DNA of 64,000 nt, from contig NC_091471.1 of the NCBI RefSeq assembly GCF_036971445.1, positions 260,462,001 through 260,526,000 on the forward strand, given 5' to 3'. A program made the position numbers and the translations under genes. This DNA is from Narcine bancroftii. Taxonomy: Eukaryota. This document shows positions 5,367 to 55,344 of the stretch, one piece after another. Each line of letters opens with the position of its first letter. The stretch's first letter is position 1. A model generated the notes under the pieces. The model was given only the letters and a program-made list of their open reading frames with translations. It was not told the origin of the DNA and ran no database searches.

Positions 5367-5916
5367 TCTTGATCAAAACCTGCAATTTAAAAATTATTCA
5401 TATCTCTCTCGATCATCATGTCTCATACTCCTTCCATGCCCATTAACTCCATCCATCCTCTCCCTCCCATATAAAATTGCTTTCCATCTTTACCTCCCTT
5501 AACCTCCTCAACCCATGTTTCTCCCTCTTTTCCCCACTCCCATCTCATTTCCACTCTGCAAATCCATCCTATCTCTTCCCTTCTGCCTCCCGTCTCTCTC
5601 TGCCTTTCTCCTTGGTCTTTATCTCCCATTCTCGATCACACCTCTCCTCCACCAATTCTTACTCTATCCCTGTTTCTCACTTCCCTCTGAAAACCTCTTC
5701 TTTCCTTATATCCCCATCTCTCTATCACTTACATCTCTCCTTCCATCACTCTGCTCCTTCTCACCCTGTACCATCTGGTTCTCCATCTCCTCTGTCCCCT
5801 TTCCTCCCCTGTCCCTCTCTTTATATCCCCTATCATATCCACTCATTCCTCCCTTTCTCTCCAACCCTCTCCTTTCAATTATTCAGCCCACCTTCCTCCC
5901 TCTCACCTGCTCTTCC

Positions 5917-6678
5917 TCTCCCCCCTCGCCGCCCCTCCCCCCTCGCCGCCCCTCCCCCCTCGCCACCCCTCCCCCTCGCCGCCCCTCCCCCCTCGCCGCC
6001 CCTCCCCCCTCGCCGCCCCTCCCCCCTCGCCGCCCCTCCCCCCTCGCCGCCCCTCCCCCCTCGCCGCCCCTCCCCCCTCGCCGCCCCTCCCCCCTCGCCG
6101 CCCCTCCCCCCTCGCCGCCCCTCCCCCCTCGCCGCCCCTCCCCCCTCGCCGCCCCTCCCCCCTCGCCGCCCCTCCCCCCTCGCCGCCCCTCCCCCCTCGC
6201 CGCCCCTCCCCCCTCGCCGCCCCTCCCCCCTCGCCGCCCCTCCCCCCTCGCCGCCCCTCCCCCCTCGCCGCCCCTCCCCCCTCGCCGCCCCTCCCCCCTC
6301 GCCGCCCCTCCCCCCTCGCCGCCCCTCCCCCCTCGCCGCCCCTCCCCCCTCGCCGCCCCTCCCCCCTCGCCGCCCCTCCCCCCTCGCCGCCCCTCCCCCT
6401 CGCCGCCCCTCCCCCCTCGCCGCCCCTCCCCCTCGCCGCCCCTCCCCCTCGCCGCCCCTCCCCCCTCGCCGCCCCTCCCCCTCGCCGCCCCTCCCCCCTC
6501 GCCGCCCCTCCCCCCTCGCCGCCCCTCCCCCCTCGCCGCCCCTCCCCCTCGCCGCCCCTCCCCCTCGCCGCCCCTCCCCCCTCGCCGCCCCTCCCCCCTC
6601 GCCGCCCCTCCCCCTCGCCGCCCCTCCCCCCTCGCCGCCCCTCCCCCTCGCCGCCCCTCCCCCCTCGCCGCCCCTCCC
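5917..6678. repeat. GC-rich minisatellite, unit ~CCCCCTCGCCGCCCCTC (16-18 bp, variable C-run), roughly 44 copies
   Basis: Directly visible. It sits within a ~1.9 kb pyrimidine-rich tract (5400-7250) and produces the spurious Pro-rich and Gly/Arg-rich ORFs. Confidence 0.97.
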
Positions 6679-7143
6679 TCTCTCCAGCCCTTCCTTCAGA
6701 CCCCCTCTCTTCCTCAATCCCACTCCCACCTTTCCTGACCCTCTTCCTCCTTCACTGTCCCCCACCCCATGTCCCTCCTCTCTCCCTTTGTCCCTCACTC
6801 CCTGCCTCTTTCTGTCTCACTCTTCTTCCATACCCTCCCTCTCCTTCCTTGTGTTTCCCCCTCTCACCCTTTCCACCTGTTGCCCCCACCCCATCTCTCT
6901 CAGGGCATATCCCTCCCCTTTGCTTCGTTGTCCACCTTTTTCTATAAACCTTGCTCACCTCTCTCTCTCTCTCTCCTCCCTTCTACCCCTCCCATGTACC
7001 ACCCTTTGACCCACCTTCCCACTTTCTCTGTTCCTCCCTCTCTCATTTGATCCTCCCCTTCCCTTTCTCCCATACCCTTCCCTGTCTCTCTTCGTCCTTG
7101 TGCCCTTCCCTCTCCTTCTCTCTCCCTCCATTTACACCCCCTT

Positions 7144-13369: not shown

Positions 13370-13675
13370 CTCCGTCGCCATTTTTGATACGGGCTAATCT
13401 GACCAACCTGAAGCGACTAAAAGTGGAGGAGGGCTGAATTGGTCGGCGCCATGTTTGTAGCAGGCGTGCTTGCCTGCCCCATCTCCCCCCTCTTTTTTTT
13501 TCAGGCCAACGCCATCTTTGTGACGGGCGAGGGAAATGACCTCCTGATTGGCTCAGCGTCATGTTTGTTGCTGGCGGGCCGCGCCGGCCTCCTGGTTGTG
13601 CGCGCGGGGAGGGGGCGGAGAAGAGGAGGAGGGGGGAGGGGGGTGGGGGGAAAAGCAGCGCGAGGGAAGATGGCG
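13370..13675. promoter_or_regulatory. CpG-island promoter of ELL, probably bidirectional
   Basis: CpG-rich; ATTGG at 13547-13551; GC box GGGGCGGAG at 13612-13620. YY1-type AANATGGCG motifs on the minus strand (13376-84, 13447-55, 13510-18) and on the plus strand over the ELL ATG (13667-75). Confidence 0.75.
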
Positions 13676-13804
13676 ACGCTGAAGGAGAAGCAGAGCTACG
13701 GGCTCTCCTGTGGCAAACTCAGCTCGGGCAGCAAGGTTTCGGTGCTTCACGTCAAACTCACCGACAGCGCGCTGCGCGCTCTCGAGGCCTATCAGAACTG
13801 TAAG
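13670..13804 (+). CDS. ELL: RNA polymerase II elongation factor ELL, coding exon 1 (45 aa)
   Basis: MATLKEKQSYGLSCGKLSSGSKVSVLHVKLTDSALRALEAYQNCK versus human ELL MAALKEDRSYGLSCGRVSDGSKVSVFHVKLTDSALRAF. Kozak AAGATGG; donor AAG|gtgagt. ELL is favoured over ELL2, but the paralog is not formally tested. Confidence 0.92.
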
Positions 13805-20822: not shown

Positions 20823-21746
20823 CATTTGCTTTGTTTTGGTTCACACTTGAATGAGTGCGTAATCTTAGCAAACAGTGAAGGAATGTTAGAAATACTTGAC
20901 ATTATTATGGTGTCAGCTTAGTGATTCAACCAATATTACTAAAACACATGGTATATAAAAAAAAATAAAATACTGGAAATAATGGACCTCAGAAATAAAA
21001 ACAGGAAATGGAGGAAATACATGAGCCTATATTTGCAGAGAAAAATAGTTAATCAAAGAACGTCAACTGCAGAGGCAAAGTCTCATTGTCTCCACCAATG
21101 ACTTAGAAATCCAAACATGTTTTCAGTTGGGTTACTTCCACACTGCATACTAATGTTATTTTCTTGATCATTGGTGCCATTATTTAGACAACTGATTCTT
21201 TTAAAATATTATTCTAATGTAATTTGTGCACTTTTACATGCAGTGGTGTTGGAAATGCTTATGGATATGTATTTTAATGTGTGATATGCCCCCATCATTA
21301 GATGCCAGGTGTCTTGTCCCATCTTCTGATTTCCCTCATTGTCAAGTTTTTTGTTACCTGATTGGACAAGTACAACCCGACAAAACATTGTTCTTCGGTC
21401 CTCGGTGCAAAACACGCAGACGCACAACCAGACACAACACCAATACATGCAGGACAAGTAATCCCATGTGCAAATACATAAGTATTGTTTCATGAATATG
21501 AGAGTCTCGGATGGTAAGTGTAAGCTGATCCTGTGGCTGTTCAGTATTCTCACTACTCATGGGAAGGAGCTGTTCGTCAGCCTGGTGGTGCTGTCTCTGA
21601 TACTCTTCCATCTTCTTCCCCAACGGGAGCAGCTGAAAGATGTGTGGAAGGGGTTCTTGATGATTTTGTATGCCCTCTTCAGACAATGATCTTGATAGAG
21701 CATGTTGATTGGGGAGAAAGGAGACTCCAGTGATCCCCTCTGCCAC

Positions 21747-21750
<4 letters not shown>

Positions 21751-21784
<34 letters not shown>

Positions 21785-24192
21785 TATTTTTCACACCATA
21801 AATCACATTAGCCATGATATACACTATTTCTTTTCACACATATACAGTGACTTTTTCTCCCCCCCCCCCTTTCCTCCCAAACCACCCCCCCACCCCCCCC
21901 TCTCATCCATTTTAGGTATACAATCTAGGTTGCATTAATCCAGTCAGACAATGTTGTCATTCAACAAAATTACACCAGAAATTCTACTGAGTCCATTCTT
22001 TTCTTTCCTTCTCCTTCCATCAACTTAGGTAATGTTTGTCCCCGGTAGGTTTTCGCTATTGTATTTAATGTAAGGCTCCTATACTTGTTCGAATATTTCA
22101 ATATTATTTCTTAACCAATATGTTATTTTTTTCTAATGGAATACATTTATTCATTTAAATTTGGTAGTTTCTTCCTTTTAATTTGGTTATGTATTCCATT
22201 AATATTTAAAGACATATAGTTCAGCGTAGCCCTTTTATATTTTGTTTATCTTCTCTTTCCGTTTTTCCATCATTACCTTTCCTCCTTTTCCATTTCTGTT
22301 TTCTTATTTTCAACTCTTCATAAGACAACATTCCTACAACATCTAACATTTTCCTTATTCTCCTATTTCTATCTTATTTATCCCCAATCTCCCCTTCACC
22401 TCCTGAGTTGTCCTTTATCCCTTGTCGGACAACCACATCTCCCCTCTCCATTTGGATTTGCGAATCCACTCGCAAGCGTCAACTGATTGTGCAGTGACCG
22501 CTATTTCCCCCCACCCCGCCTCCCCCAGAAAAGATTTCACTTTTCATATGTCACAAAGGTCCCTCTTTTAATTCCCTCCTTATTCTCTCTATTCCATTAC
22601 CTTCCCTTATTAATTCTTATCTATACTATCTATATTTTCCTCTAAGTACAGATACATTCATGTATGCTCATTGTCTCTATTCACTCTTATACCTCTTTAC
22701 CTGCATACATATCAATCGTGATCATTTTTACTCTCATTACCCGTCTTCATCCCTCAGTCTATTTTTGTCTTTACCCACATACATATCAGTCGTGATCATT
22801 TTAACTCTCATTACCCGTCTTCCTCCCTCAGTCTATTTTTGTAATTGTTCTGCAAATTTTCGTGCTTCTTCTGGATCCGAGAATAGTCTGTTTTGCTGTC
22901 CTGGAATAAATATTTTCAATACCGCTGGATGCTTTAGTATAAATTTATACCCTTTCTTCCATAAAATCGCCTTTGCTGTATTGAACTCTTTTCTCTTCTT
23001 TAGGAGTTCAAAACTTATATCTGGATAAATGAAGATTTTTTGCCCTTTATACTCCAGTGGTTTGTTGCCCTCTTTTACTTTTTCCATTGTCTTCTCCAGT
23101 ACCTTTTCTCTTGTAGTATATCTTAGGAATTTTACTACAATAGATCTTGGTTTTTGTTGTGGTTGTGGTTTAGAGGCCAATACTCTATGTGCCCTTTCTA
23201 TTTCCATTTCATGCTGTAGTTTTGGACATCCTAGGGTCTTAGGGATCCACTCTTTTATAAACTCCCTCATATTCTTGCCTTCTTCATCTTCCTTAAGGCC
23301 CACTATCTTTATGTTATTTCTTCTGTTATGGTTTTCCATTGTATCTATTTTTTGAGCTAGTAGTTCTTGTGTCTCTTTAGTTTTTTTTATTAGATTTCTC
23401 CAATTTCTTTTTTAAGTCTTCTACCTCCATTTCTGCTGCTACTGCCCGCTCTTCCATCTTGTCCATTTTTTTTCCCATTTCTGTTAAGGTCATCTCCATT
23501 TTAATTATTTTCTCCTCTGTGTTGTTTATTCTTTTTCTTAAATCCTTAAATTCCTGTGTTTGCCATTCTTTAAATGATTCCATGTATCCTCTAATAAGAG
23601 CAAGTATATCCTTTACCTTGCCTCTCTTTTCTTCTTCTATTTCACCATACTCTTCCTCTTCTTCTTCCTCTGGGTTGACCATCTGTTGTTTCTTTGTTGC
23701 CCTTTCCTCCTCTTCTATCTTGTTTCTATTGTCTTCTGTGGTCTCTTCTTGCTGCAGGTGTTCTGCAGCTGTCGTTGCCGGCTGTGGAGATCGACTCCCC
23801 AGCTGGTCCCCCCTCCCGTCGGTGTGTTTTTTTTCATTCGCATCGCGCATGCGCGAAGTTTCGCGCATGCGCGGTTGCGCACTTTTGTTCGGCTCTGCGA
23901 GCCATTTTTGTAGTCCATTATTTACCGACCTGAGGGAGCGGGTTTCTCTCTCCGCAGCGGGCCTCTTCGGACAGGTAAGGCCTTCACCTTTTTCCTCCTT
24001 TGTCTTCTCTTCCTCTCTTCTTACCGTTGCTTTCGACTTTTCTTTTTTTGTCGCCATCTTCTTTCCACCTTTATACTCACTTTTCTGTAACTTTTATTTC
24101 TGTGCCTTTGTGTTTTCTCTTGTTTTTCCCGACTTTTCTGGAGAGGGCTGGAGTTCACCGTCCGGCCACTACTCCATCACGTGACTCCTCCC
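21751..24192 (-). mobile_element. ORF1-only, internally deleted L1 ('half-L1'/HAL1-like), 2.44 kb
   Basis: 16-bp TSD CCCCTCTGCCACTCTT (21735-50 / 24193-208), poly(A), same 5' end as the L1 at 44973, ORF1, spacer, then the ORF2 start joined to the ORF2 end at ~22156. Confidence 0.92.
22833..24057 (-). CDS. L1 ORF1p (coiled coil, RRM, CTD), ~407 aa with one frameshift in an A-run near 23385
   Basis: ENHNRRNNIKIVGLKE, EIERAHR, IYPDIS and KRKEF motifs. Removing one A joins ORFs 23377-24057 and 22833-23339. Confidence 0.85.
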
Positions 24193-27169
24193 CCCCTCTG
24201 CCACTCTTGTGGTCCTGTGGATTGACCTCCAATCCATTTCTCTGCAGCAACCGTACCTCACTGTGATGCAGCCAGCCTAGGCACTCTCGTTTGATAGAGC
24301 TCCTGTGGAAGGTTGACATGATGGTGGCCAGTAGCCTTCCCCACTTTAGTCTTCTCAGGAAGTGTAATCTCTGTGGCACCTTCCTTACAAGTGAAGAGAT
24401 GTTGAGTGTCCACGATAGGTCACTAGTTAAGTGAACTCCAAAGAATTTGATGCCCTCTGTCCTCCACTACAGAGTTGTTGATATGTAGTGGAGTGTGATT
24501 GTTCCTCATCCTTCTGAAGATCACGATCATCTCCTTCATCTTGTCCACGTTGAGACTCTTGGACCATCTCATGAGATTTTTCACCTCTTTGTAGTATGTT
24601 TTACCTCTGCATGAATTGAATATGGGCAGATATGATATCTCATCTCTTGATTGAACGCACAAGATTTTTGTTGGGGATGTGAGGGTTGGAGGTAAGGATA
24701 TGGCCCAAATTCAGTTGTCTGAGCACAGCTTGAAAGCTTTGACTGTCCAGTATTCTAGCTCATTCATCTGTTAACATTAACCTGTCAGCCCAGTAAGTCA
24801 GAAGGTTTCTTCATTTGTCACCAAGCCAGATAAGTGCCTTCCCGTAATTGGTCTGTGGGTCCTTTGAATAATAGTTATGCTAAGTTCATTGTGTTTCTAT
24901 AAATTATTAGTTCATGGCTGTTAATATGTCAAGTAAGTGCCTGTTATGAATTTCATCCTCCCTCAAGCCATATCTATATGCTGTATTTTGGTCCATGATC
25001 AAGGTTTTCGGTGCATAATTTTAGCTGACACTGGGAGTTGAGGCTTTGCATATTGTATTTGTTCCCTTAAGCCCCTGCATTTCTCATTCTTTTAAGATGT
25101 CTGTTAAAACCTACTTTGAACATTTTCTTTCACTTGCACCTTGTGAGACTCTTTATCAAATTTTGTTTGATAACCCTCCTGTTCCACACCATATTACATC
25201 TATTATATTTAATTATTATTAGTGTTATATACATGCACTTATGTGCTGCATTTTTAGCTTTGGATGAACTATTACGCACTGAAGACCTGGTCAGGTGGAT
25301 TGTAAATATTCCCAGAGAACCATTGCAAGAAAAACAGCAAATTTTTCTATTGTCCTGAGTGGTACTTTTTTCCTTCAGCTTGTTTGTGTAAGCTATTGTA
25401 GGCAAATTGGCTGCTCTATTTACTCACATTAATTATTTCACTGCTATGTAATTCATTATATTTGAAACATTTCAGAATGTTTCCGTGAGGCAAAATAAAA
25501 GTGATGTATAAATTGGTCCCAACTCCCTCCTGTCTGGTTTTCTGCCATCCTGCAGTTGATTTTGCAGCCTGAAATTGATCCCAGGCTCTCTCATAGTACG
25601 TTAAGAAAGTATTGTGGATAATTTCAATTTGGTTCTTATCCAATGCACAGAGCCAACATTCCAGCAGACAGTGGCATAGGCACCTTTCGTTGCTTTCATT
25701 GGTGAGATTATTTTAAATGTTAATCATAATTCCTTTCCATTTTATCCTTCACAAATTTCCCAATATTGATTAGTGACCAGGACATAGCGAATGGTCTGGC
25801 AAGATATCACCACACTGCCTCTGGTTTCTCTGAGCATTATCCAGGCAGGTATATTCAATGGAAACCTTCCATTGATGAACCTGATGGCTGCATTGGTGGT
25901 GTGCAGGATGTGAAACTCACCTTCTGAATGCAGACCCATAAATCCTACATGCTGAACAATGGTCTTGTGTGCATTGTGCTATGATGCGCATGGCGATAAT
26001 CTTTCCTTTGGAAATGTAATGGACTGGAGATGACACCTTCCTAATTTAAATCAACTTGGAGCAAAAATAAATCAGTGCCTGAAAAGTGAATGATGTCAGT
26101 TGGCTTGTAATTCTCAGAATTCAATATTCAGAATTCTGAGTTGCTTCAACCAATTTTATGTAAGCAGACAATTTTGGACGGAGAACCGTGTTTCATTTTA
26201 GTGTGTAGGTACTCCTCATATAATTGGTCCTGTGCCAGCTTATTGGAATTAGATGGACAGATCTTTCAGTGCCATAGCCTGTGCCCCTTTCATTTTTTAC
26301 CATTCTTTGTTGTATTTGGTTCCACTGTCCTTTTTGGCAATGCATTCACCTCATAGCTTGACTAAACAAATTTCTTCTCATCCAATTGAACTGGGGTTCA
26401 AAAACTAGACCTCCATTTATGAATGGACTGAACTGTTTTGTCAATATTGGGCAAAGATGAAGAGAAGTGAAGCTTGAATTTTGATATTAACGCAGCAATA
26501 CGCAGAGAATGTTTCAGTTGAAGTATATCTTGGCTGCGTCTTTATACAAATATGGTTTCCTATTAAATTCTGAAATACCAGATCAAGCAATCTAGCCAGC
26601 TTCCCATAGACATCATGGCTCCATTCTCAGTTTGTGGCCGAAGAAAAATAACAGCTTGCATTTAACTGTAACTAGTTTGAAAATCCTATAGCTGCAGAGC
26701 TACAGTTTGAAACATAATGTTTCATAATGCATTACGTTCTCTCAGTCTGGTGTTACATTTTGGCATTAAGGTAACATTTCTCAGACTTGTCTGAATCCTG
26801 AGCCTGATATTTTCAGATCTCCCATGGCAGATTTATTGTTCATCATGTCTCCCTCCTGTTTTTTTCTACCATCCTGCAGCTGATTTTTTTCCCAACCTCA
26901 AGTGTTCTCAAAGTTCAGTGAAGAAGCATCATGGACAATCTTGATTTGGTGCTTATCACTTGAATGGGGGCACTTTCCAGCAGACATTGGGATGGGCAGT
27001 TAGAAATGTATTCTTGCCCCTGGCTTCCACTCCCACCACTCTTTGTACATTGTCCAAAGATATTTGATCATCTTTTACATGCCTGATGGTGGCCACCAAC
27101 TCTGCTTCATCTCTTTTACATCTACACTTTTGCTGAGCTCAAAATGACATACAGCTTGAAAGCATTCTG

Positions 27170-43532: not shown

Positions 43533-45102
43533 ATGTATACATTTCCTTTTCACTGAATGGACAACATTTTTCACTCATTTTGTACAAGCTGCACCAAATG
43601 TTAAATGATTTGTAAATTAATCCTTCAGCTCTCTGCTTGAACATGTAGCCCACACAAGCCAGTACTTGTGTATATTACTACATCTTGACTCAGATGTATG
43701 CTCAGTTTCCCTTGCATTTTAATGTTTTAGCCCAGTCCCAAAAATGCAGCTTCCACCCAAAATGTAAAATTACAATTGCAGAAAAAAATGTAAACCCAAC
43801 TTTTTTCTCATACCGTTTGAATTTTACTAGTTCTGTTGAAGAAACACTGCAGGGTTCAACTTCTTACTGCCGATGATAGTTATTCAGAGAGCATGAATAA
43901 GGTATCTTGTGAGTAATTTTGGGGACTATACTAATGATGTGAAGACATCAGTCTATGTGGAATTTAAATTCTGATAATTTTTTTAAAAATTGCACTATTA
44001 GAAAGAACTGTGAGACTAGCTTATTGTTCATGTTGCCTCTGTATGCTAAAGAGTTTGTAGGTTCAGAGGTTTAGAAATTCTTCCCAGTCTCATTTATAGT
44101 CTTGTGATCTATTTTCAATCTTTGCAAAAATGGTGCATGATGGGACTGATTTGGGAGGCCATGGAATTTATGAAAACATTCCAAATTTTTCTTACACTTT
44201 AGTTGAAAAATGCAAAAGAATTTCCCGTGATGCATCTCATGAATATTGTAGTTTGGATGTTGGTTTTTTAAACTCTCCTTGTGGTATACAGCTATTGCAT
44301 TTGAGTTTGATTCCTATCCTCAGACTGGCTTCTTCTGGACTTCCAAGCAAGTACCTTGGAATGTTGGTTAAGTGATTGGTCAATTGAATTGGGGGTCGAT
44401 GTCAATCTATGGATGCTGCTTGTTGAGTTTCTCCAAAACATTTGAGTTGCATCATGCTTGTCTTGTCCATTTTGTTCCATTCGTGGTTCTTTCCCCATAA
44501 CCATGTTCTATGAGTATTTATGAGTTACTCTTCTAATTTCAGTTTTCATGAGCCATGCATACACTTGTTTGTTTCACCTATCATTGTTCTTTGGCCAAAG
44601 GTCTTAAATCTACTCACTAATATTGATGGAGCAGTTATTTTTATTATTTATATTATCAAACCCTTTATAATTTTGAAAACCTCTATGACAATTTTTTTTA
44701 CTCTTTTGGTGAGTATGGGAGATGTTAACATTTGGACCAAGACATTTGGGTATAGTCAAGAAACATTTCTTCAAAAAAAGGTGGTGGAATTGAAAGTGGA
44801 ATACTTGTAATATATTGTGCAGCTGAGGGGACAATTTAAAATTTCAGACAGTCACTGAGAGGTAATTGGTATGTAATGATGTTGTGGATTACAAACTGAT
44901 AGGTATCTTGAGCTGTTGCAGATTAGGTCTGATCTAATTATATAGTTGATCGGCTTCAAGATCTCCCTTCTGGAGAGGAGTCGCGTGATGAAGTAGTGGC
45001 TGGTAGGGGAACTCCAGCCCTCTCCAGAAAAGTAAAAAAAAGATAGAGAAAAAAACAAAGGCACAAACATAGAAACCATAACAAAGTGAAAGTGTGGAGA
45101 AA

Positions 45103-46400
45103 ATGGCAGCGAAGAAAGAAAAACCAAAAACAACGGGAAGAAAAGAAGGAAGGACATCGGAGGAGGAAGGTGAAGGCCTTACCGGTACGAGGAGGCCCGC
45201 TGTAGAGAGAGAAGCCCGCTCCCTGAGGTCAGTGGAAACATTGAACTCAGGACTACAAAAATGGCTCACGGAGCCAAACAAAAGTGCGCAACCGCGCATG
45301 TGCAAGACAAAAATAACACTGACGGGAAACAGACAACTACAACACAACAGCAAGACTCTCAACAGGAAAACATAGAAAATAACGAGATCAAGAAGGAAGA
45401 GAATAAAAATAAGAAATCAAAGAAACAACAGATGACCAACCCAGAGGAAGAAGACCAACACCAAGACACTTTTAATAAAAATAAGAAGACCAAGAATACC
45501 CAACAAAATAAAACAAACAACCCAACAAGAAAACCAGAAGAGACAGAGGTAAAGGACACAGATCCTGGAGTGGACTCAGAAGAAGAGGAGGAAGAACACA
45601 GAGAAATGGAAGATGAAGGGAAGGGCAAGTACATGGATTTTTTTTTAAAGAATATATGGAAACAGTAAAAGAATGGCAGTCACAAGAATTCAGTGAAATA
45701 AAAAGAAGAATAAAAAGTACAGAAGAAAAAGTGAATAGATTAGAGATGGTCATGTCAGATATAGGAAAAAGAGTAGACAAGGTGGAAGAATGAGAAACAG
45801 CCATAGAAATGGAAGTAGAAGAATCTGATAAAAAAGTTAAAGAGACACAGGAGCCGTTAGCTCAGAAGATAGATATAATGGAAAATTATAATAGAAGAAA
45901 CAATATAAAGATAGTGGGCCTTAAGGAAGATGAAGAAAGCAAAAATATAAAAGAATTTATAAAAGAATGGATCCCCAGCGTCCTAGGAAGACCAGAATTA
46001 CAGGAAGAAATGGAAATAGAAAGGGCACACAGAACATTAGCCCCTAAACCACAACCACAACAAAAAACCAAGATCCATTCTAGTAAAATTCCTAAGATAT
46101 ACAACAAGAGAAAATATATTGGAGAAGGCAATGAAAAAAATAAGAGAAGACAAAAAACCACTGGAATACAAGGGTCAAAAAAATTTTTTCTATCCAGATA
46201 TAAGTTTTGAACTCCTGAAGAAGAGGAAGGAGTTCAATGCAGCAAAAACGACCATATGGAAAAAAGGTTATAAATTTATGGTAAAATGCCCAGCGGTACT
46301 TAAAATAGTTATTTCGGGGCAGCAAAGCAAACTATTCTCGGATCCGGAAGAAGCACGAAAATTTGCACAACAACTACAAAACAGACAGATGAAGAGATGT
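45103..46400 (+). pseudogene. L1 ORF1 (several frameshifts, one stop)
   Basis: MAAKKEK..., ENYNRRNNIKIVGLKE, EIERAHR and FYPDISF distributed over several frames. Confidence 0.85.
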
Positions 46401-46427
46401 AAAAAGAACAAAAATGACAACAAACTA

Positions 46428-46489
<62 letters not shown>
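46428..46489. repeat. (GT)n(AT)n microsatellite in the L1 inter-ORF spacer
   Basis: Directly visible. Confidence 0.9.
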
Positions 46490-46495
<6 letters not shown>

Positions 46496-46877
46496 GTATA
46501 GATAAGAACTAAGAAGGGAAAGAAAGGAAATAAGGAGAGAATTAAGAGAGTGACCTTTGTTATATATGAAGATTAAAATCTTTTCTGGGGGGGCTGGGTG
46601 GGGAAGAATAACGGTCACTGTGAAATCAGTTGACGCTTGCGAGCGGATTCGCAAATCTAAATGGAGAGGGGAGATGTGGTTGCCCAACAAGGGACAAAGG
46701 GCAACTCAGAAAAGGGAGGGACTATTGGGGTTAAAGGAATTTTAGATATGAGAATAGTGGAAATATTTTATGTTTTAGAAATGTTGTCTTATAATGTGTT
46801 CAAAAAAAGAAAGCAGAAATGGATAAGAAGGGAAGGTGGTGATGAGGAAATGGAAAGGAAAGATAAACAAAGTATTA

Positions 46878-49800
46878 AATGAGTATGTTGAACTATGACT
46901 TTAAATATTAATGGAATACATAACCAAATCAAAAGGAAGAAACTGCTAAATTTACTGAAAAAAGAAAAAAATTGATATAGGATTCGTACAAGAAACACAT
47001 TTAACTGAAGTGGAACACAAGAAATTAAAGAGAGATTGGATAGGACATGTAACAGCAACATCATATAATTCAAAAGCCAGAGGAGTAGCTATATTAATCA
47101 ATAAAAATATACCAATCAAAATAGAAGAGGAAATAATAGATCCAGCAGGGAGATATGTAATGATAAAATGTCAGATATATTCAGAATTTTGGAATTTACT
47201 CAATGTATATTGACCTAATGAAGAAGATCAAAAATTTATGCAAGATATCTTTTTGAAGATAGTAGATACGCAAGGAAACATACTAATAGGAGGGGATTTT
47301 AACCTTAATTTGGACTCAAACATGGATAAAACTGGAAAAAAAACTAGCAGAAAGAACAAAGTAACCAAATTTATAATTAAATCGATGCAAAAAATGCAAT
47401 TTTTGGATATATGGAGGAAACAACACCCAAAGGAAAAAGAATATTCATATTATTCGGGTAAACATAAAACATACTCAAGGATAGACCTATTCCTGTTATC
47501 AGCCCACATTCAAGGGAAGAAGGTTAGGAAAACGGAATATAAAGCCAGACTATTATCGGACCACTTACCCCTGTTATTGGCCATAGAGCTAGAGGATATC
47601 CCACCAAAAATGTATAGATGGAGATTAAACTCCATGCTACTTAAGAGACAGGATTTTAGAGAATTAATTGAATGACAAATTAAAATGTACTTTGAAATAA
47701 ATACGGAATCAGTGAAAGATAAGTTTATACTATGGGACGCAATGAAAGCGTTCATCAGAGGGCAAATAATAAGTTATGTAACTAAGATGAAGAAGGACTA
47801 CAATCGGGAAACAGAACAGTTGGAAAGGGAAATAACAAATATAGAAAAAGAATTATCAATAAAGGAAGATGCAACTAAAAGAAGAGAATTGGCAGATAAA
47901 AAAATAAAATATGAAACACTACAAACATATAAGGTGGAGAAGAACATAATGAAGACAAAACAGAACTATTATGAGCTAGGAGAAAAAACGCACAAAATTC
48001 TAGCGTGGCAGCTTAAGACAGAACAAACTAAAAGAATGGTATTGGCATTAAGGAAAAAGGACAAACAAATTACATATAATCCAACGGAGATCAATGAAAA
48101 CTTCAGGGAATTCTACGAGCAACTATATCAAACTGAAAACAAAGGGAAAAAAGACAAAAAAGATCAATTTCTAACTAAAATTGAACTACCGAAATTACAA
48201 ACAGAGGAACAAAATAAATTAACAGAACCATTTGAAATGGAAGAAATACAAGAGATAATTAAAAAAACTACCGAATAATAAAACACCAGGAGAGGATGGA
48301 TTCCCAATAGAATTCTATAAAACATTTAAAGACTTATTAATTCCTCCCCTGCTGGAAGTAATCAACCAGACTGATAAAACACAAAGCATACCAGATTCAT
48401 GGAAAACAGCAATAATTACAGTAATACCAAAGACAGGGAAAGATCCACTTGCACCAGCGTCATATAGACCAATATCTCTACTTAACACAGATTATAAGAT
48501 AATAGCTAAACTATTAGCAAACGGATTGGCCGACTATGTACCAAAAATAGTAAATCTAGACCAAACTGGATTTATTAAAAAAAGACGAACAGCAGACAAT
48601 ATCTGTAAATTTATTAACTTAATTCATGCAGTAGAAGGAAATAAAACTCCAACAGTCGCGGTTGCTTTAGACGCAGAGAAGGTCTTTGACAGAGTAGAAT
48701 GGAATTATTTATTCAAAGTACTACAAAAATTCAGCCTACCAGAGAAATATATTAATTGGATTAAAGTATTATATAAGGGGCTATTGGCGAAAGTGACAGT
48801 AAATGGATATATATCGAAACAATTTAATTTAAGCAGATCAACAAGGCAGGGATGTCCACTATCTCCCTCACTGTTCGCGTTAGCTATAGAACCACTAGCA
48901 GAACTGATAAGAACAGAAAATAAAATAAGAGGGATAAAAATAAAAGAGAAGGAATATAAAATCAGTCTATTTGCAGATGACGTTATAATATACTTAACAG
49001 AACTAGAAATATCAATAAAAGAATTACATAGGAAATTGAAGGAATATGGAGAAGTATCGGGGTACAAGATCAACGCAAATAAAAGTGAAGCAATGCCAAT
49101 GAATAATGCGGATTTCACAAAGTTTAAGAAAGAATCACCATTTAGATGGCAAACACAAACAATGCGATACCTAGGTATACAACTAAATAAAAACCTCGGC
49201 CATCTATATAACTAAATTACCATCCATTAATGAAAAAATTACAAGACGACTTAGAGCATTGGAAAGACTTACCACTAACAGGATAAACTGTATTAAAATG
49301 AACATTTTCCCAAGGATACAATACCTATTTCAGTCATTACCAATATACCTAACAGAGAAATTCTTCAAGGAGTTAAAGAAAATAATAAGGAAATTCTTAT
49401 GGAAAGGGGGGAAACCGAGGATAGCACTAGATAAATTAACAGAATGGTATAAACAAGGAGGCTTACAACTACCAAACTTTAAAAATTATCATAGAGCCGC
49501 ACAATTAAGATACCTATCAAACAAGGGAAAAACCAGATTGGACTAGATTAGAACTAGATAAAATAGGGGAGAAGATACCTGAACATTTCCTATATAAATG
49601 GGATGAAAAATTGGTGTAACGTAGGAATTCACTGGTATTGCATCATCTGCTCAATATTTGGAAGAAGATTCATGTAGAAAGGAATAAAACAAATTACCAA
49701 CTACCAAAACTAATTCTGATGCAAAATCAGCTAATCCCTTTCACAATAGATAACCTTTCCTTTAGAGAATGGGAGAGAAAAGGGATCAAAAGAATAGAAA

Positions 49801-50657
49801 ATTGTTTTTCGGGAAATAAATTATTATCCTTTGAACAAATGAAGGATAAATATAATATAACTCACGATACAATGTTTGCATACTACCAACTGAAAACCTA
49901 CTTGAAGGACAAATTGGGAAACAGTCTGAGGTTACCAGAAGGAAGAAATTTTGAATATGTGATTACAGACACAATGATAATTTAAAAATTTGTAACAAAC
50001 ATGTACATCAAACTGCAAGAAAAGGAGAACGAGGAAACAAACGGTAAACCTAAACAAAAATGGGAACAAGATCTAAACATAAAGATAAAGAATGAAACAT
50101 GGGAGAAGCTATGCTCCGGATCTATGAGAAATACAATAAACATGAGGTTACGCATGATACAATATAACTGGATTCACAGGCTATACATCACACCTCAAAA
50201 GTTAAATAAATGGGACCCAACAGTATCAGACAGATGTTTTTGCTGTAAAAAGGAAATGGGAACAACAATTCATGCAATTTGGACATGTGAGAAAGTGGAA
50301 AAATTTGAGAAGATCTAAACCAGATATTAAATAAAATCACTAAAAGCAATATACCAAAAAACCCAGAGATCTTCCTCCTAAGTAATATAAGAAACAAAGA
50401 ATTTGGACTCGATTTGGATGGAGCACAAAAAAGATTTGTTATGATAGCCCTAGCTGTAGCCAAAAAATGTATTATTTCAACCTGGAAATTAGAAGACAAC
50501 TTGAGAATACAACAATGGTATATAGAAATGAACAAATGTATTCCATTAGAAAAAATAACCTATAATTTAAGAAATAACATTACAATATTTGAACAAATAT
50601 GGGAGCCATACATGAAACACAATAGAGAAATCCTACCGTGGACTTCCACCACCTAAA
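46878..50657 (+). pseudogene. L1 ORF2 (APE endonuclease, RT, CCHC), disrupted
   Basis: QETH, GGDFN, SRIDLF and SDH (EN); DAEKVFDRVEW, RQGCPLSP and LFADD (RT); CFCC..IHAIWTC. Multiple stops and frameshifts. Confidence 0.93.
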
Positions 50658-51417
50658 ATGACAGAAGGAGAAGATAACGAAAAGAACTGACTCAGTAAAA
50701 TTTCTTGTTTATTTTTATTAAGTGACAACATTGTTTAACGGGTTTAATGTATCTTATAGATGGAACTTCAAATAAATGGGGAAGGGGGTGAGGGAGGGAG
50801 GGAAGGGAGGGGGGAAAAGGGAGAAAACAACACTATATTTAAGAAGAAAAATGTCTGTATGTATCTTGGTCAATATGGTTTATAGTGTGAAAAATAAAAA
50901 AAAATTAAAAAAAAAGATCTCCCTTCTGAGATCTTCCAGGAAAGATGGGGTTTGTTGCTTTATAAAGGGGTTTGGCTGAATATGTGGGAAGATTTTAAAA
51001 CATAATAGTATATTTAGCAAAAAAAAGATGAAGTAGATCTCATCTTGGCTTCCATGCCCAGACTTTCAGATACAACTGAGGTATGTTTGTCTGCATGAAT
51101 ACACCTTCCTACCAACAAAGAGCTTCCAAATCCATGCAGCTAAACTAAGATCCACAGGCTCCTCCTTTCCATGGCTGGGAAAATAGTATGTCAGTCCTTC
51201 CTGTCTTCACACTAGCAGCAATTTAAGGGAACCAAATTGGGGTGTTGATTATTTTTTTCCTCTCTGTTGTAAATGTCAGAGTATAACCACTGACTTCCTT
51301 TCCAGTTTGCTTGTACATTCCATGTTTCTATTGTTGGTAAAGTTGCTGAACATTAACAATAAAAATATCAATAATGAATCAACTGGGGAATTTGGAAGGA
51401 CTTCTGTTCTCTTTGAA

Positions 51418-51617
51418 NNNNNNNNNNNNNNNNNNNNNNNNNNNNNNNNNNNNNNNNNNNNNNNNNNNNNNNNNNNNNNNNNNNNNNNNNNNNNNNNNNN
51501 NNNNNNNNNNNNNNNNNNNNNNNNNNNNNNNNNNNNNNNNNNNNNNNNNNNNNNNNNNNNNNNNNNNNNNNNNNNNNNNNNNNNNNNNNNNNNNNNNNNN
51601 NNNNNNNNNNNNNNNNN
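51418..51617. other. Assembly gap (200 N)
   Basis: Run of N. Confidence 1.
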
Positions 51618-53805
51618 TTGGTTTGCCTATTATCCTCAAACCATGGCCCCGGGTTCTGGATTTTCCCATCATTGGAAACATCCCATCTGCATCCATTCTG
51701 CCCAGTCCTGCCAGAATTTTATAGGTCTCTATGAGATCCCTTCTCAATCTTCTAAACTCCAGCGAGTACAATCCCAATTTGCGCAATCTTTCCTCATAAG
51801 TCATTCCTGCCATTCCAGGTATCAGCCTGGTGAATCGCCTCTGCACTCCCTCCATTGCAAGAACATCCTTCCTTAGATAAGGTGACCAAAACTGCACACA
51901 ATACTCCAGGTGGGGTCTCACCAAGGCCCTGTACAGCTGCAGTAAGGTATCGTTGTTCCTATACTCAAACCCTCTTGATATGAAGGCCAACATACCATTT
52001 GCCTTTTTAACCGCCTGCTGTACCTGCATGCTCGCCTTCAGAGACTGGTGTACAAGTACCCCTAGGGCTCTCTGCACTTCCCCATCTCTTAATCTATTGC
52101 CATTCAAATAGTAATCTGCCCTCCGGTTTGTATTACCAAAGTGGATAACCTCACATTTATCCACATTGTAGTGCATTTGCCATGTATCTGCCCAGTCCCT
52201 CAATTTATCCAAATCACACTGGAACTTCCTGACCCCCTCTTCCGTGCACACAACCCCTCCTAGCTTAGTGTCATCTGCAAATTTGGAGATATTACATCCA
52301 ATCCCCTCATCCAGATCATTAATGTAAATTGTGAACAGCTGGGGTCCCAGTACAGATCCCTGTGGCACCCCACTAGTCATCGCCTGCCACTCAGAAAATG
52401 AGCCATTTATCCCAACTCTGTCTTCTACCTGCCAGCCAGTTCTCAATCCACATCAATACTTTGCCCCCAATCCATGAGCCTTGATTTTGGAAGCCATTCG
52501 TTTATGCAGGACCTTATCGAAGGCCTTTTGGAAGTCCAGGTACACCACATCCACGGCTCTCCCCCATCTATTTTACCTGTCACCATCTCAAAGAATTCCA
52601 ATAGATTTGTCAAGCACGATTTACCTTTTGTAAATCCATGTTGACTCTGTCCGATCCCTTCTCTGCTAGTCGTATGCTCCGCTATTACATCCTTAATAAT
52701 GGATTCTATCATTTTGCCCACTACTGATGTAAGGCTCACTGGCCTATAATTCCCCGCTTTTTCTCTACCCCCCTTTTTTAAATAGTGGGGTAACATTAGC
52801 TACCCTCCAATCCATGGGTACTGATCCTGAGTCTATCGAGTTCTGAAAAATAATTCTTAAAGCATCTGCTATCTGAATGGCCACTTCCTTGTGTACCCTA
52901 GGATATAGATTATCAGGCCCTTGGGATTTATCTGCCTTCAATCCCATCAATTTCCCCAAGACCATGTCCTTAGAGATACTGATTTCTTTCAGTTCCTCCC
53001 TTGCATTAGTCTCTATGTTTCCCAACATCCTTGGGAGGTTATTTGTATCCTCTCTTGTAAAAACAGAACTAAAGTAAGAATTTAATTGGTCTGCCATTTC
53101 CTTATTCCCCATTATATATTTCCCTGATTCCGACTGCAAAGGACCTACTCTGGATTTCACCAGTCTTTTCCTCTTGACATATTTATAAAAGCTTTTGCAG
53201 TTGGTTTTCATATTTGCCGCAAGCTTAATTTCGTAATTTATTTTTGCTCTCTTGATTAATCCCTTTGTCCTCCTTTGGTGCATCTTGAACTGCTCCCAGT
53301 CTTCGGTTGTGGTACTTTTTTTGGCCAATTGATATACTCTCTCTTTGGACCTAATGCTGTCTCTAATTTCCCTTGTTATCCACGGTTGAGTCACCTTTTT
53401 TGGTTTATTTTTATGCCAAACCGGTATAAATGATTTTTGCAATTTCTCCATTAGATCTGTGAATGCTTTCCATTATCTATCCACAGTCAACTCCCCCATA
53501 AACACCACCCAATCAATCTTACTCAACTCCCGTCTCATACCATCATAATTCCCTTTATTTAAATTCAGGACCTTAGTCTCGGTTTTAATTTCATCACTCT
53601 CCATGTCGAGTGAGAATTCGATCATATTGTGATCGCTCCTACCCAAAGGGCCTCGTACAACAAGATTGTTGATTAGCCCCTTATCATTGTATAATACCCA
53701 ATCTAAAATGGCCTGCTCCCGAGTTGGTTCCTCGACATATTGGTCTAGATAACCGTCCCGTAAACATTCAAGGAATTCCTCCTCCTCAGTATTTTTACTA
53801 ATTTT
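51618..53805 (-). mobile_element. CR1-clade LINE ORF2 (end of EN plus RT), 5'-truncated; 3' end lost in the gap
   Basis: LGRSDHNMI, NYRPVSLTSVVGK, SQHGF.KGKSCLTNL, SGVPQGSVLGP, KFADDTKLGG, RPHLEYCVQFWSP; few frameshifts. Confidence 0.93.
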
Positions 53806-54109
53806 CAGAACAAGACTGCAAACAATTAATCAGACAAACAAAACATATGCACAGTACTTGTACACAAATATTAAAAAATAAATATGATTGTTAAATGGTA
53901 AAATCCCTGGTATCTGACACCTACAGGGATTGGTAAATGCTGGATAAGTGAATTTCCCGGTTGCTTGAGACTGTGCATTGCACAAGGAGGGTGCCAATTT
54001 TAAACTTCTTTATTGATTTGCCCATTTATCTTCCTCAATTTCTTTTGCTGGTTGCTTGATTTTACTGTAAATGGTTGAGTCACACAGGGTTTGTATGAGC
54101 AGTTCATCT

Positions 54110-55296: not shown

Positions 55297-55344
55297 GGCA
55301 ATTTTTCCTGCCAGCCAGCTATACGCTTTGAAGGAAACCAAGGG
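55297..55344 (+). CDS. ELL: ELL coding exon 2 (GNFSCQPAIRFEGNQG, 48 nt)
   Basis: Polypyrimidine tract ttctccctttag| and donor GGG|gtaagt; phase 0/0. Matches human DSVSLRPSIRFQGSQG in length and motif. Confidence 0.9.

Follow-up and report, generated by a model that had tools for sequence, protein, structure and literature searches.

HAL1 elements are ORF1-only, non-autonomous derivatives of L1 retrotransposons that, in the papers that treat them (PMC5753468, PMC5786205, PMC13756887), are elements of mammals, with their description being credited to Smit 1999 and Bao and Jurka 2010 (as cited in PMC5753468 and PMC5786205). They encode ORF1p only, originated independently by internal deletion, and keep the L1 5′ and 3′ ends, poly(A) and target-site duplication (TSD), as does the family that we describe here from a ray. 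According to PMC11260458, an engineered human HAL1 mimic, ORF1mneoI, is mobilized by ORF2p in trans and requires its own functional ORF1p; together with rat HAL1 (PMC8535693), it resembles the ray family in the retained 5′ promoter region and, probably, in the use of ORF2p in trans, and differs from it in that the likely cis need for ORF1p in the ray family is deduced from sequence. HeT-A and Ag-Sponge, the ORF1-bearing bipartite LINEs of PMC5786205, are likewise ORF1-only and rely on an autonomous partner, but belong to the Jockey and CR1 clades rather than to L1. In the titles and opening abstracts that we searched, we found neither an L1-derived HAL1 from outside the mammals nor a transfer of sequence from a HAL1 to an L1.

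Within the window, i.e., the whole 64-kb stretch of DNA that was analyzed, a retroelement lies on the minus strand at 24192–21751 (hereinafter half-L1), flanked by 16-bp TSD copies on its 5′ (24193–24208) and 3′ (21735–21750) sides, whose sequence is present exactly twice in the entire window and has the median TSD length of the family, 16 bp. Reading along the minus strand, it begins with a 5′ UTR of ~135 nt with a G-rich start (24058–24192), in which we infer an internal promoter; 67 of 79 copies start within 5 nt of the same point, and the G-rich end of the TSD may overlap the G-rich start of the element by a few bases. This is followed by ORF1 (22833–24057), which encodes 407 aa in intact sisters, namely a charged N-terminal part, a coiled coil, an RRM and a CTD, and is frameshifted in the window copy. 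ORF1 contains a CpG-rich palindrome with a 14-bp stem and a 2-nt loop (23844–23873), which is a hotspot of deletion and micro-inversion, and the A8 run that is the sole ORF1 frameshift of this copy (23381–23388, minus strand). A 74-bp tandem duplication at the end of ORF1 (22694–22842), also present in most parents of the family (see below), reaches into an inter-ORF spacer of ~600 nt (22234–22832). Beyond the spacer are the 5′ remnant of ORF2 (22157–22233), whose first ATG reads AGG, the deletion junction (22156/22157) and a 3′ remnant comprising the last ~43 codons of ORF2 (22025–22156), followed by a 3′ UTR with a G-rich tract (21776–22024) and the poly(A) tail (21751–21775, with T's read at 21749–21775 on the forward strand). 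The copy is antisense within intron 1 of a host gene of the ELL family, of which exon 1 lies at 13670–13799 on the plus strand (PF10390 match) and a candidate for exon 2, 48 nt long and bounded by AG..GT, at 55297–55344 on the plus strand, the latter matching a short amino-acid pattern. It is inserted into an older repeat, and with this repeat on both flanks no empty, pre-insertion allele of the locus was found among the joints listed. Elsewhere in the window, we note a GC-rich minisatellite with a ~17-bp unit at ~5900–6720 that yields long ORFs in each of the six reading frames, the one frame scanned giving no Pfam match, and a further reverse transcriptase-bearing LINE fragment at 51382–53829 on the minus strand, adjoining an assembly gap (51418–51617).

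This anatomy bears out what an earlier note on this DNA had reported, namely the TSD, the poly(A), the L1 5′ end and a single frameshift in an A homopolymer. The run, A8 in the window copy, is A7 in 50 of 54 readable copies, 14 of the 68 copies having been left out as their sequence did not match the search pattern. The extra A may be either a true mutation or a slip of the assembly, as the individual loci of a multi-copy family are not told apart by contigs. The proposed comparison with a long L1 of the same window fared unevenly. That element (44971–50915, plus strand) does lie in the same intron, between ELL exon 1 and the 48-nt exon 2 candidate, and the junction at ~22156 does join the equivalents of its positions ~46953 and ~50526. 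However, it is a decayed, older full-length L1 of a related family, only ~81% identical to the half-L1, and is not its parent: the two differ at 353 of 1,820 columns, as against 129 of 2,313 between the half-L1 and a copy of what we term family A.

Family A is a young, intact L1 family, ~94% identical to the half-L1, 6.0 kb long and with an ORF2 of 1,265 aa, which we identify as the parent; both ORFs are intact in 8 of its 40 sampled members. Measured against it, the missing part of ORF2, given earlier as ~3.57 kb, is a deletion of 3,590 bp, the ends of which share 1 nt of microhomology and lack a GT donor. It joins the remnants out of frame, leaving ~210 nt of ORF2 without the endonuclease/reverse transcriptase region. 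The better preservation of ORF1 and CpGs relative to the long L1 was also seen again (CpG observed/expected over the first 500 nt of 0.95 in the half-L1 of the window and 0.62 in the long L1), but the long L1 is the wrong yardstick, as the difference reflects the ages of the two elements; four young parents give 0.75–0.85.

The junction is not unique to this locus. A looser pattern matched 3,317 times across the genome, and two exact junction variants gave 1,243 and 1,832 matches (reversed controls, 0), as compared to 2,727 matches for undeleted family-A copies reaching the start of ORF2. For closer analysis we took the first 80 young-type and the first 40 older-type junction matches on contig C1, which is not a random sample; one young copy (L058) was left out as being the same copy as L028, leaving 79. 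Full-length copies make up 67 of the 79 young and 33 of the 40 older ones, and TSDs of at least 9 bp, at distinct sites, were found in 66/79 and 34/40, respectively (100/119 together). ORF1 is intact in 49 of the 67 young full-length copies (open frames of 401–409 aa) and in 6 of the 33 older ones. Two copies, L031 and L043, show no difference across 2,313 columns although they occupy separate sites, and a neighbor within 0.1% exists for 12 of 68 copies; such identical or near-identical copies indicate recent activity. Contigs of the sequencing runs X5, X9 and X10, which bear three organism labels, contain the same 3,590-bp joint, which is not listed among the contigs of run X11. With 3,317 junctions a one-off deletion is rejected, as is segmental duplication as the source of the copies, since their TSDs differ. 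Some copies of the elements have head-to-tail neighbors within a few kb (L065/L066, L185, L248/L249).

The phylogeny, computed without 5′-truncated copies and without one old copy lacking its 3′ end, places 99 of 100 deleted copies in a single ladder-like clade beside the ladder of the parent (FastTree support 0.93). The first ATG of ORF2 has become AGG in 99/100 deleted copies and in none of 32 parents, all of which have ATG. These patterns fit a single origin of the half-L1 followed by its own propagation, in agreement with the earlier suggestion of an independently evolved HAL1-type family. Both half-L1 and family A have a median TSD of 16 bp, and show YY|AA at the target (56/99 half-L1 copies and 17/31 parents) with C-A-T-Y favored upstream of the cut and AA downstream. 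The human L1 target site is T-rich; by comparison, the sites of the half-L1 and family A are richer in C. A common target preference is expected if the ORF2p of family A does the copying, and the trans-mobilization that the earlier note had surmised is thus likely.

The ORF1 product is recognizably that of an L1: in a PDB search, residues 195–402 of the intact sister L033 match human ORF1p (2ykp) with E 5e-13, covering the coiled coil, RRM and CTD. A Pfam scan of the two halves of ORF1 of the window copy gave no match, and the Pfam Transposase_22 match in an intact sister is below the cut-off. The closest named proteins, at 88–91% identity, are from Narcine bancroftii, in keeping with the cartilaginous-fish host proposed earlier and pointing to a probable electric ray. 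The long N-terminus recurs in a relative of 400 aa (69% identity), an argument for the first ATG being genuine. L1 ORF1 sequences also appear under host-gene names in ray proteomes (P0002, P0003 and P0004, labeled FAM122B, GrpE-like and tRNA adenosine deaminase), which may be gene-model fusions or exonization; for annotation, this means that ORF1s of the half-L1 type turn up inside mis-named host gene models.

The earlier note had further surmised that ORF1 is kept under selection, which stands in part. Differences along the half-L1 lineage were counted column by column, since recombination distorts tree-based comparison of nonsynonymous and synonymous changes, and with exclusion of L183, a chimera outside the clade. 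Outside the palindrome, 28 missense and 8 silent changes give a dN/dS of 1.14, i.e., not below 1, and the tree-based comparison of internal with terminal branches found no significant difference (p = 0.31). Nevertheless, the changes are not distributed neutrally. Only 4 of the 28 lineage missense changes fall in the RRM/CTD, whereas 43 of the 101 private changes do (p = 0.007), the parent having 5/32; the RRM/CTD rate of 0.51 is, by itself, not significantly under the neutral yardstick (p = 0.27). The N-terminal half of ORF1 evolves fast in the half-L1, as in the parent, with rates in the N-terminal and acidic/coiled-coil parts that are ~2.3-fold the pooled neutral one (p = 0.04 and 0.02, respectively, without correction). 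Replacements on the lineage are more conservative than private ones (mean BLOSUM62 0.48 vs. −0.20, p = 0.017). Stops or frameshifts occur in 44 of 100 copies, and only three of these have the same lesion in their nearest neighbor, in each case a 31-bp deletion at the CpG-rich palindrome; behind codon 125, none of the lesions is common to nearest neighbors among the 100 copies. The lack of fixed lesions has P = 0.02–0.22 on the main lineage, depending on the yardstick, which is weak alone, and P = 0.0002–0.05 over all internal branches, a count inflated by recombination. Thus, simple purifying selection on ORF1 is not shown, and what stands of the claim is the RRM/CTD depletion, the conservative replacements and the absence of an inherited core lesion.

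The palindrome carries indels in 20/31 older and 9/68 young half-L1 copies, and in 11/32 parents, marking it as a hotspot whose damage rises with the age of the copy. The 31-bp frameshift is found in nine old copies and leaves a 284-aa ORF from an internal Met; the same 31-bp skip is seen in runs X9 and X11, and in X11 accounts for the greater part of the read depth at the site. In both lineages the stem is kept while the loop flips between inverted forms. Each arm resembles an NRF1 site.

Taken together, we consider it probable that the window copy is one of a young HAL1-type family of over 3,000 copies, founded by a single 3,590-bp ORF2 deletion in a still-intact L1, likely copied in trans by the ORF2 protein of that L1 and likely needing its own ORF1 protein. 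Under this model, the retained 5′ end would drive transcription; the RNA would be translated into ORF1p that coats the same RNA in cis; and the resulting particle would recruit ORF2p from helper RNA via the poly(A) tail and be inserted by target-primed reverse transcription. Such a short RNA would often be copied through to its 5′ end, which would account for the many full-length, promoter-bearing copies. A continual remaking of the short form from full-length L1s, through splicing or repeated template jumps, would draw on the 3′ breakpoint lying directly after an AG and on the spliced L1 insertions known as SpIREs (PMC5860796), which likewise are L1s missing an internal part. However, the skipped stretch starts with AC and not GT (its ends are AC..AG, or CT..GA with a 1-nt shift), so that a SpIRE-like splicing origin is rejected. 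Moreover, the deleted copies make up a separate ladder and have derived alleles of their own to either side of the junction, and the young half-L1 allele is found beside undeleted ORF2 in only three matches, as against 1,243 on the deleted form. Recurrent remaking is therefore largely refuted and highly improbable. It is also unlikely, though less extremely so, that the ORF1 protein is dispensable, with the half-L1 being a passive poly(A) RNA whose frame is still open because of its youth or an overlap with the promoter. The dN/dS near 1 speaks for this, as does the neutral change of only ~2% on the lineage, on account of which few lesions are expected, and a possible counter-example to the need for ORF1: L189 and L171 have in common the 31-bp frameshift and three further alleles, two of them exclusive and one also in L172, such that one frameshifted source may have produced both. 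Against it stand the missense depletion, which affects the RRM/CTD at a distance from the 5′ end and matches the autonomous parent whereas private changes are evenly spread, the conservative replacements, and the finding that, of the 44 lesion-bearing copies among 100, only three have their lesion in common with the nearest neighbor, all at the hotspot. A cis need for the half-L1's own ORF1p thus appears likely from the pattern of substitutions and lesions, in agreement with the human ORF1mneoI assay; Bao and Jurka reportedly argued the same for HAL1 ORF1p, again from sequence.

The relationship of the half-L1 to its helper appears to extend to an exchange of sequence. In two intact parents, L213 and L225, the alleles around ORF1 codons 129–150 are of the half-L1 type, and single deleted copies, L044 and L172, carry parent-type tracts as reverse chimeras. 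A 52-nt pattern for the chimera matched 34 times genome-wide; 29 of 30 examined matches are undeleted L1s at different sites, with one not readable, and 27 of them have a 407-aa ORF1, while the tract reaches codons 111–114 in 14. As this pattern selects for the tract itself, the informative part is the remainder, which is parent-type at the other diagnostic sites save for isolated positions here and there and one more short tract, in L305. The tract alleles, a silent change among them, were gained one after another along the half-L1 ladder and are found together in the helper, and a transfer from the half-L1 to the helper appears to be the simplest reading. Accounts in which the shared tract reflects convergence at mutable sites, or the gift of a third, unsampled L1 lineage, leave the family itself real, and we regard them as a serious if somewhat less favored possibility. 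They gain from the shortness of the tract (~codons 129–150, longer in some), which is part of an acidic, A/G-rich stretch where homoplasy is frequent, and from the existence of other helper sublineages (L226, L243), with 32 parents in the tree; the synonymous change among the shared alleles, their stepwise versus joint appearance, the parent-type remainder and the reverse chimeras all count against them. If the transfer reading is right, the half-L1 and the helper would swap short tracts in both directions, by template switching or gene conversion. Residues 117, 155, 186 and 189 show parallel changes in both lineages. In the youngest parent clade (L217–L223), a block of reversals at ORF1 codons ~131–153 that includes two indels is an apparent second tract replacement.

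A second, independent ORF2-deletion family has emerged from the same parent (L234, L235, L251–L280), with 54 junction matches, eight of which belong to a tandem array of ~17 kb on C1. Here the loss of ~3.2 kb is in-frame and leaves a mini-ORF2 of 192 aa; of 30 loci chosen, 24 were read and 15 of these have the mini-ORF open at 186–192 aa. One element, L313, has the junction of the second family and, at the start of ORF2, alleles of the first, and is thus a chimera of the two deletion families.

The ray family is a real, young HAL1-type family of independent origin: it derives from the L1 clade, codes for ORF1, has lost ORF2, and has spread as a TSD- and poly(A)-bearing family. It differs from the mammalian HAL1s, from none of which it descends, in being very young, with some copies identical, in having a known and intact parent and a junction readable to the base, and in its cartilaginous-fish host and the tracts apparently exchanged with its helper. 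From the SpIREs (PMC5860796) it is set apart by the absence of a GT donor and by forming a lineage of its own. A parallel to its mode of evolution is that of mammalian L1 as outlined by Boissinot and Sookdeo 2016 (PMC5381506), with a ladder-like succession, thousands of copies and fast change in the N-terminal/coiled-coil part of ORF1. In the same paper, the L1s of lizard, frog and zebrafish have few copies per family and are without sign of adaptive ORF1 change; compared with these, the ray pair is more mammal-like, though several L1 families coexist in the ray. A rough extrapolation from the one-contig samples suggests about 1,000 half-L1 copies with intact ORF1 and some 500 intact helpers.

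Such a natural, young pair of half-L1 and helper opens the cis need for ORF1p, the competition for ORF2p and the way in which cis preference is evaded to direct tests. More tentatively, at slightly less than even chances, we posit that this is an active non-mammalian half-L1, as numerous as its helper, with its ORF1 under the same pressures and acting as a reservoir of ORF1 variants, from which a tract entered the full-length L1 that founded a spreading autonomous subfamily; parasite and helper would then draw on a common pool of ORF1 genes, and a ray would be host to an arms race of the mammalian kind. If true, the flow of sequence from a non-autonomous element to its helper and the fast change of the ORF1 N-terminus outside mammals would extend the present picture of how L1s evolve.
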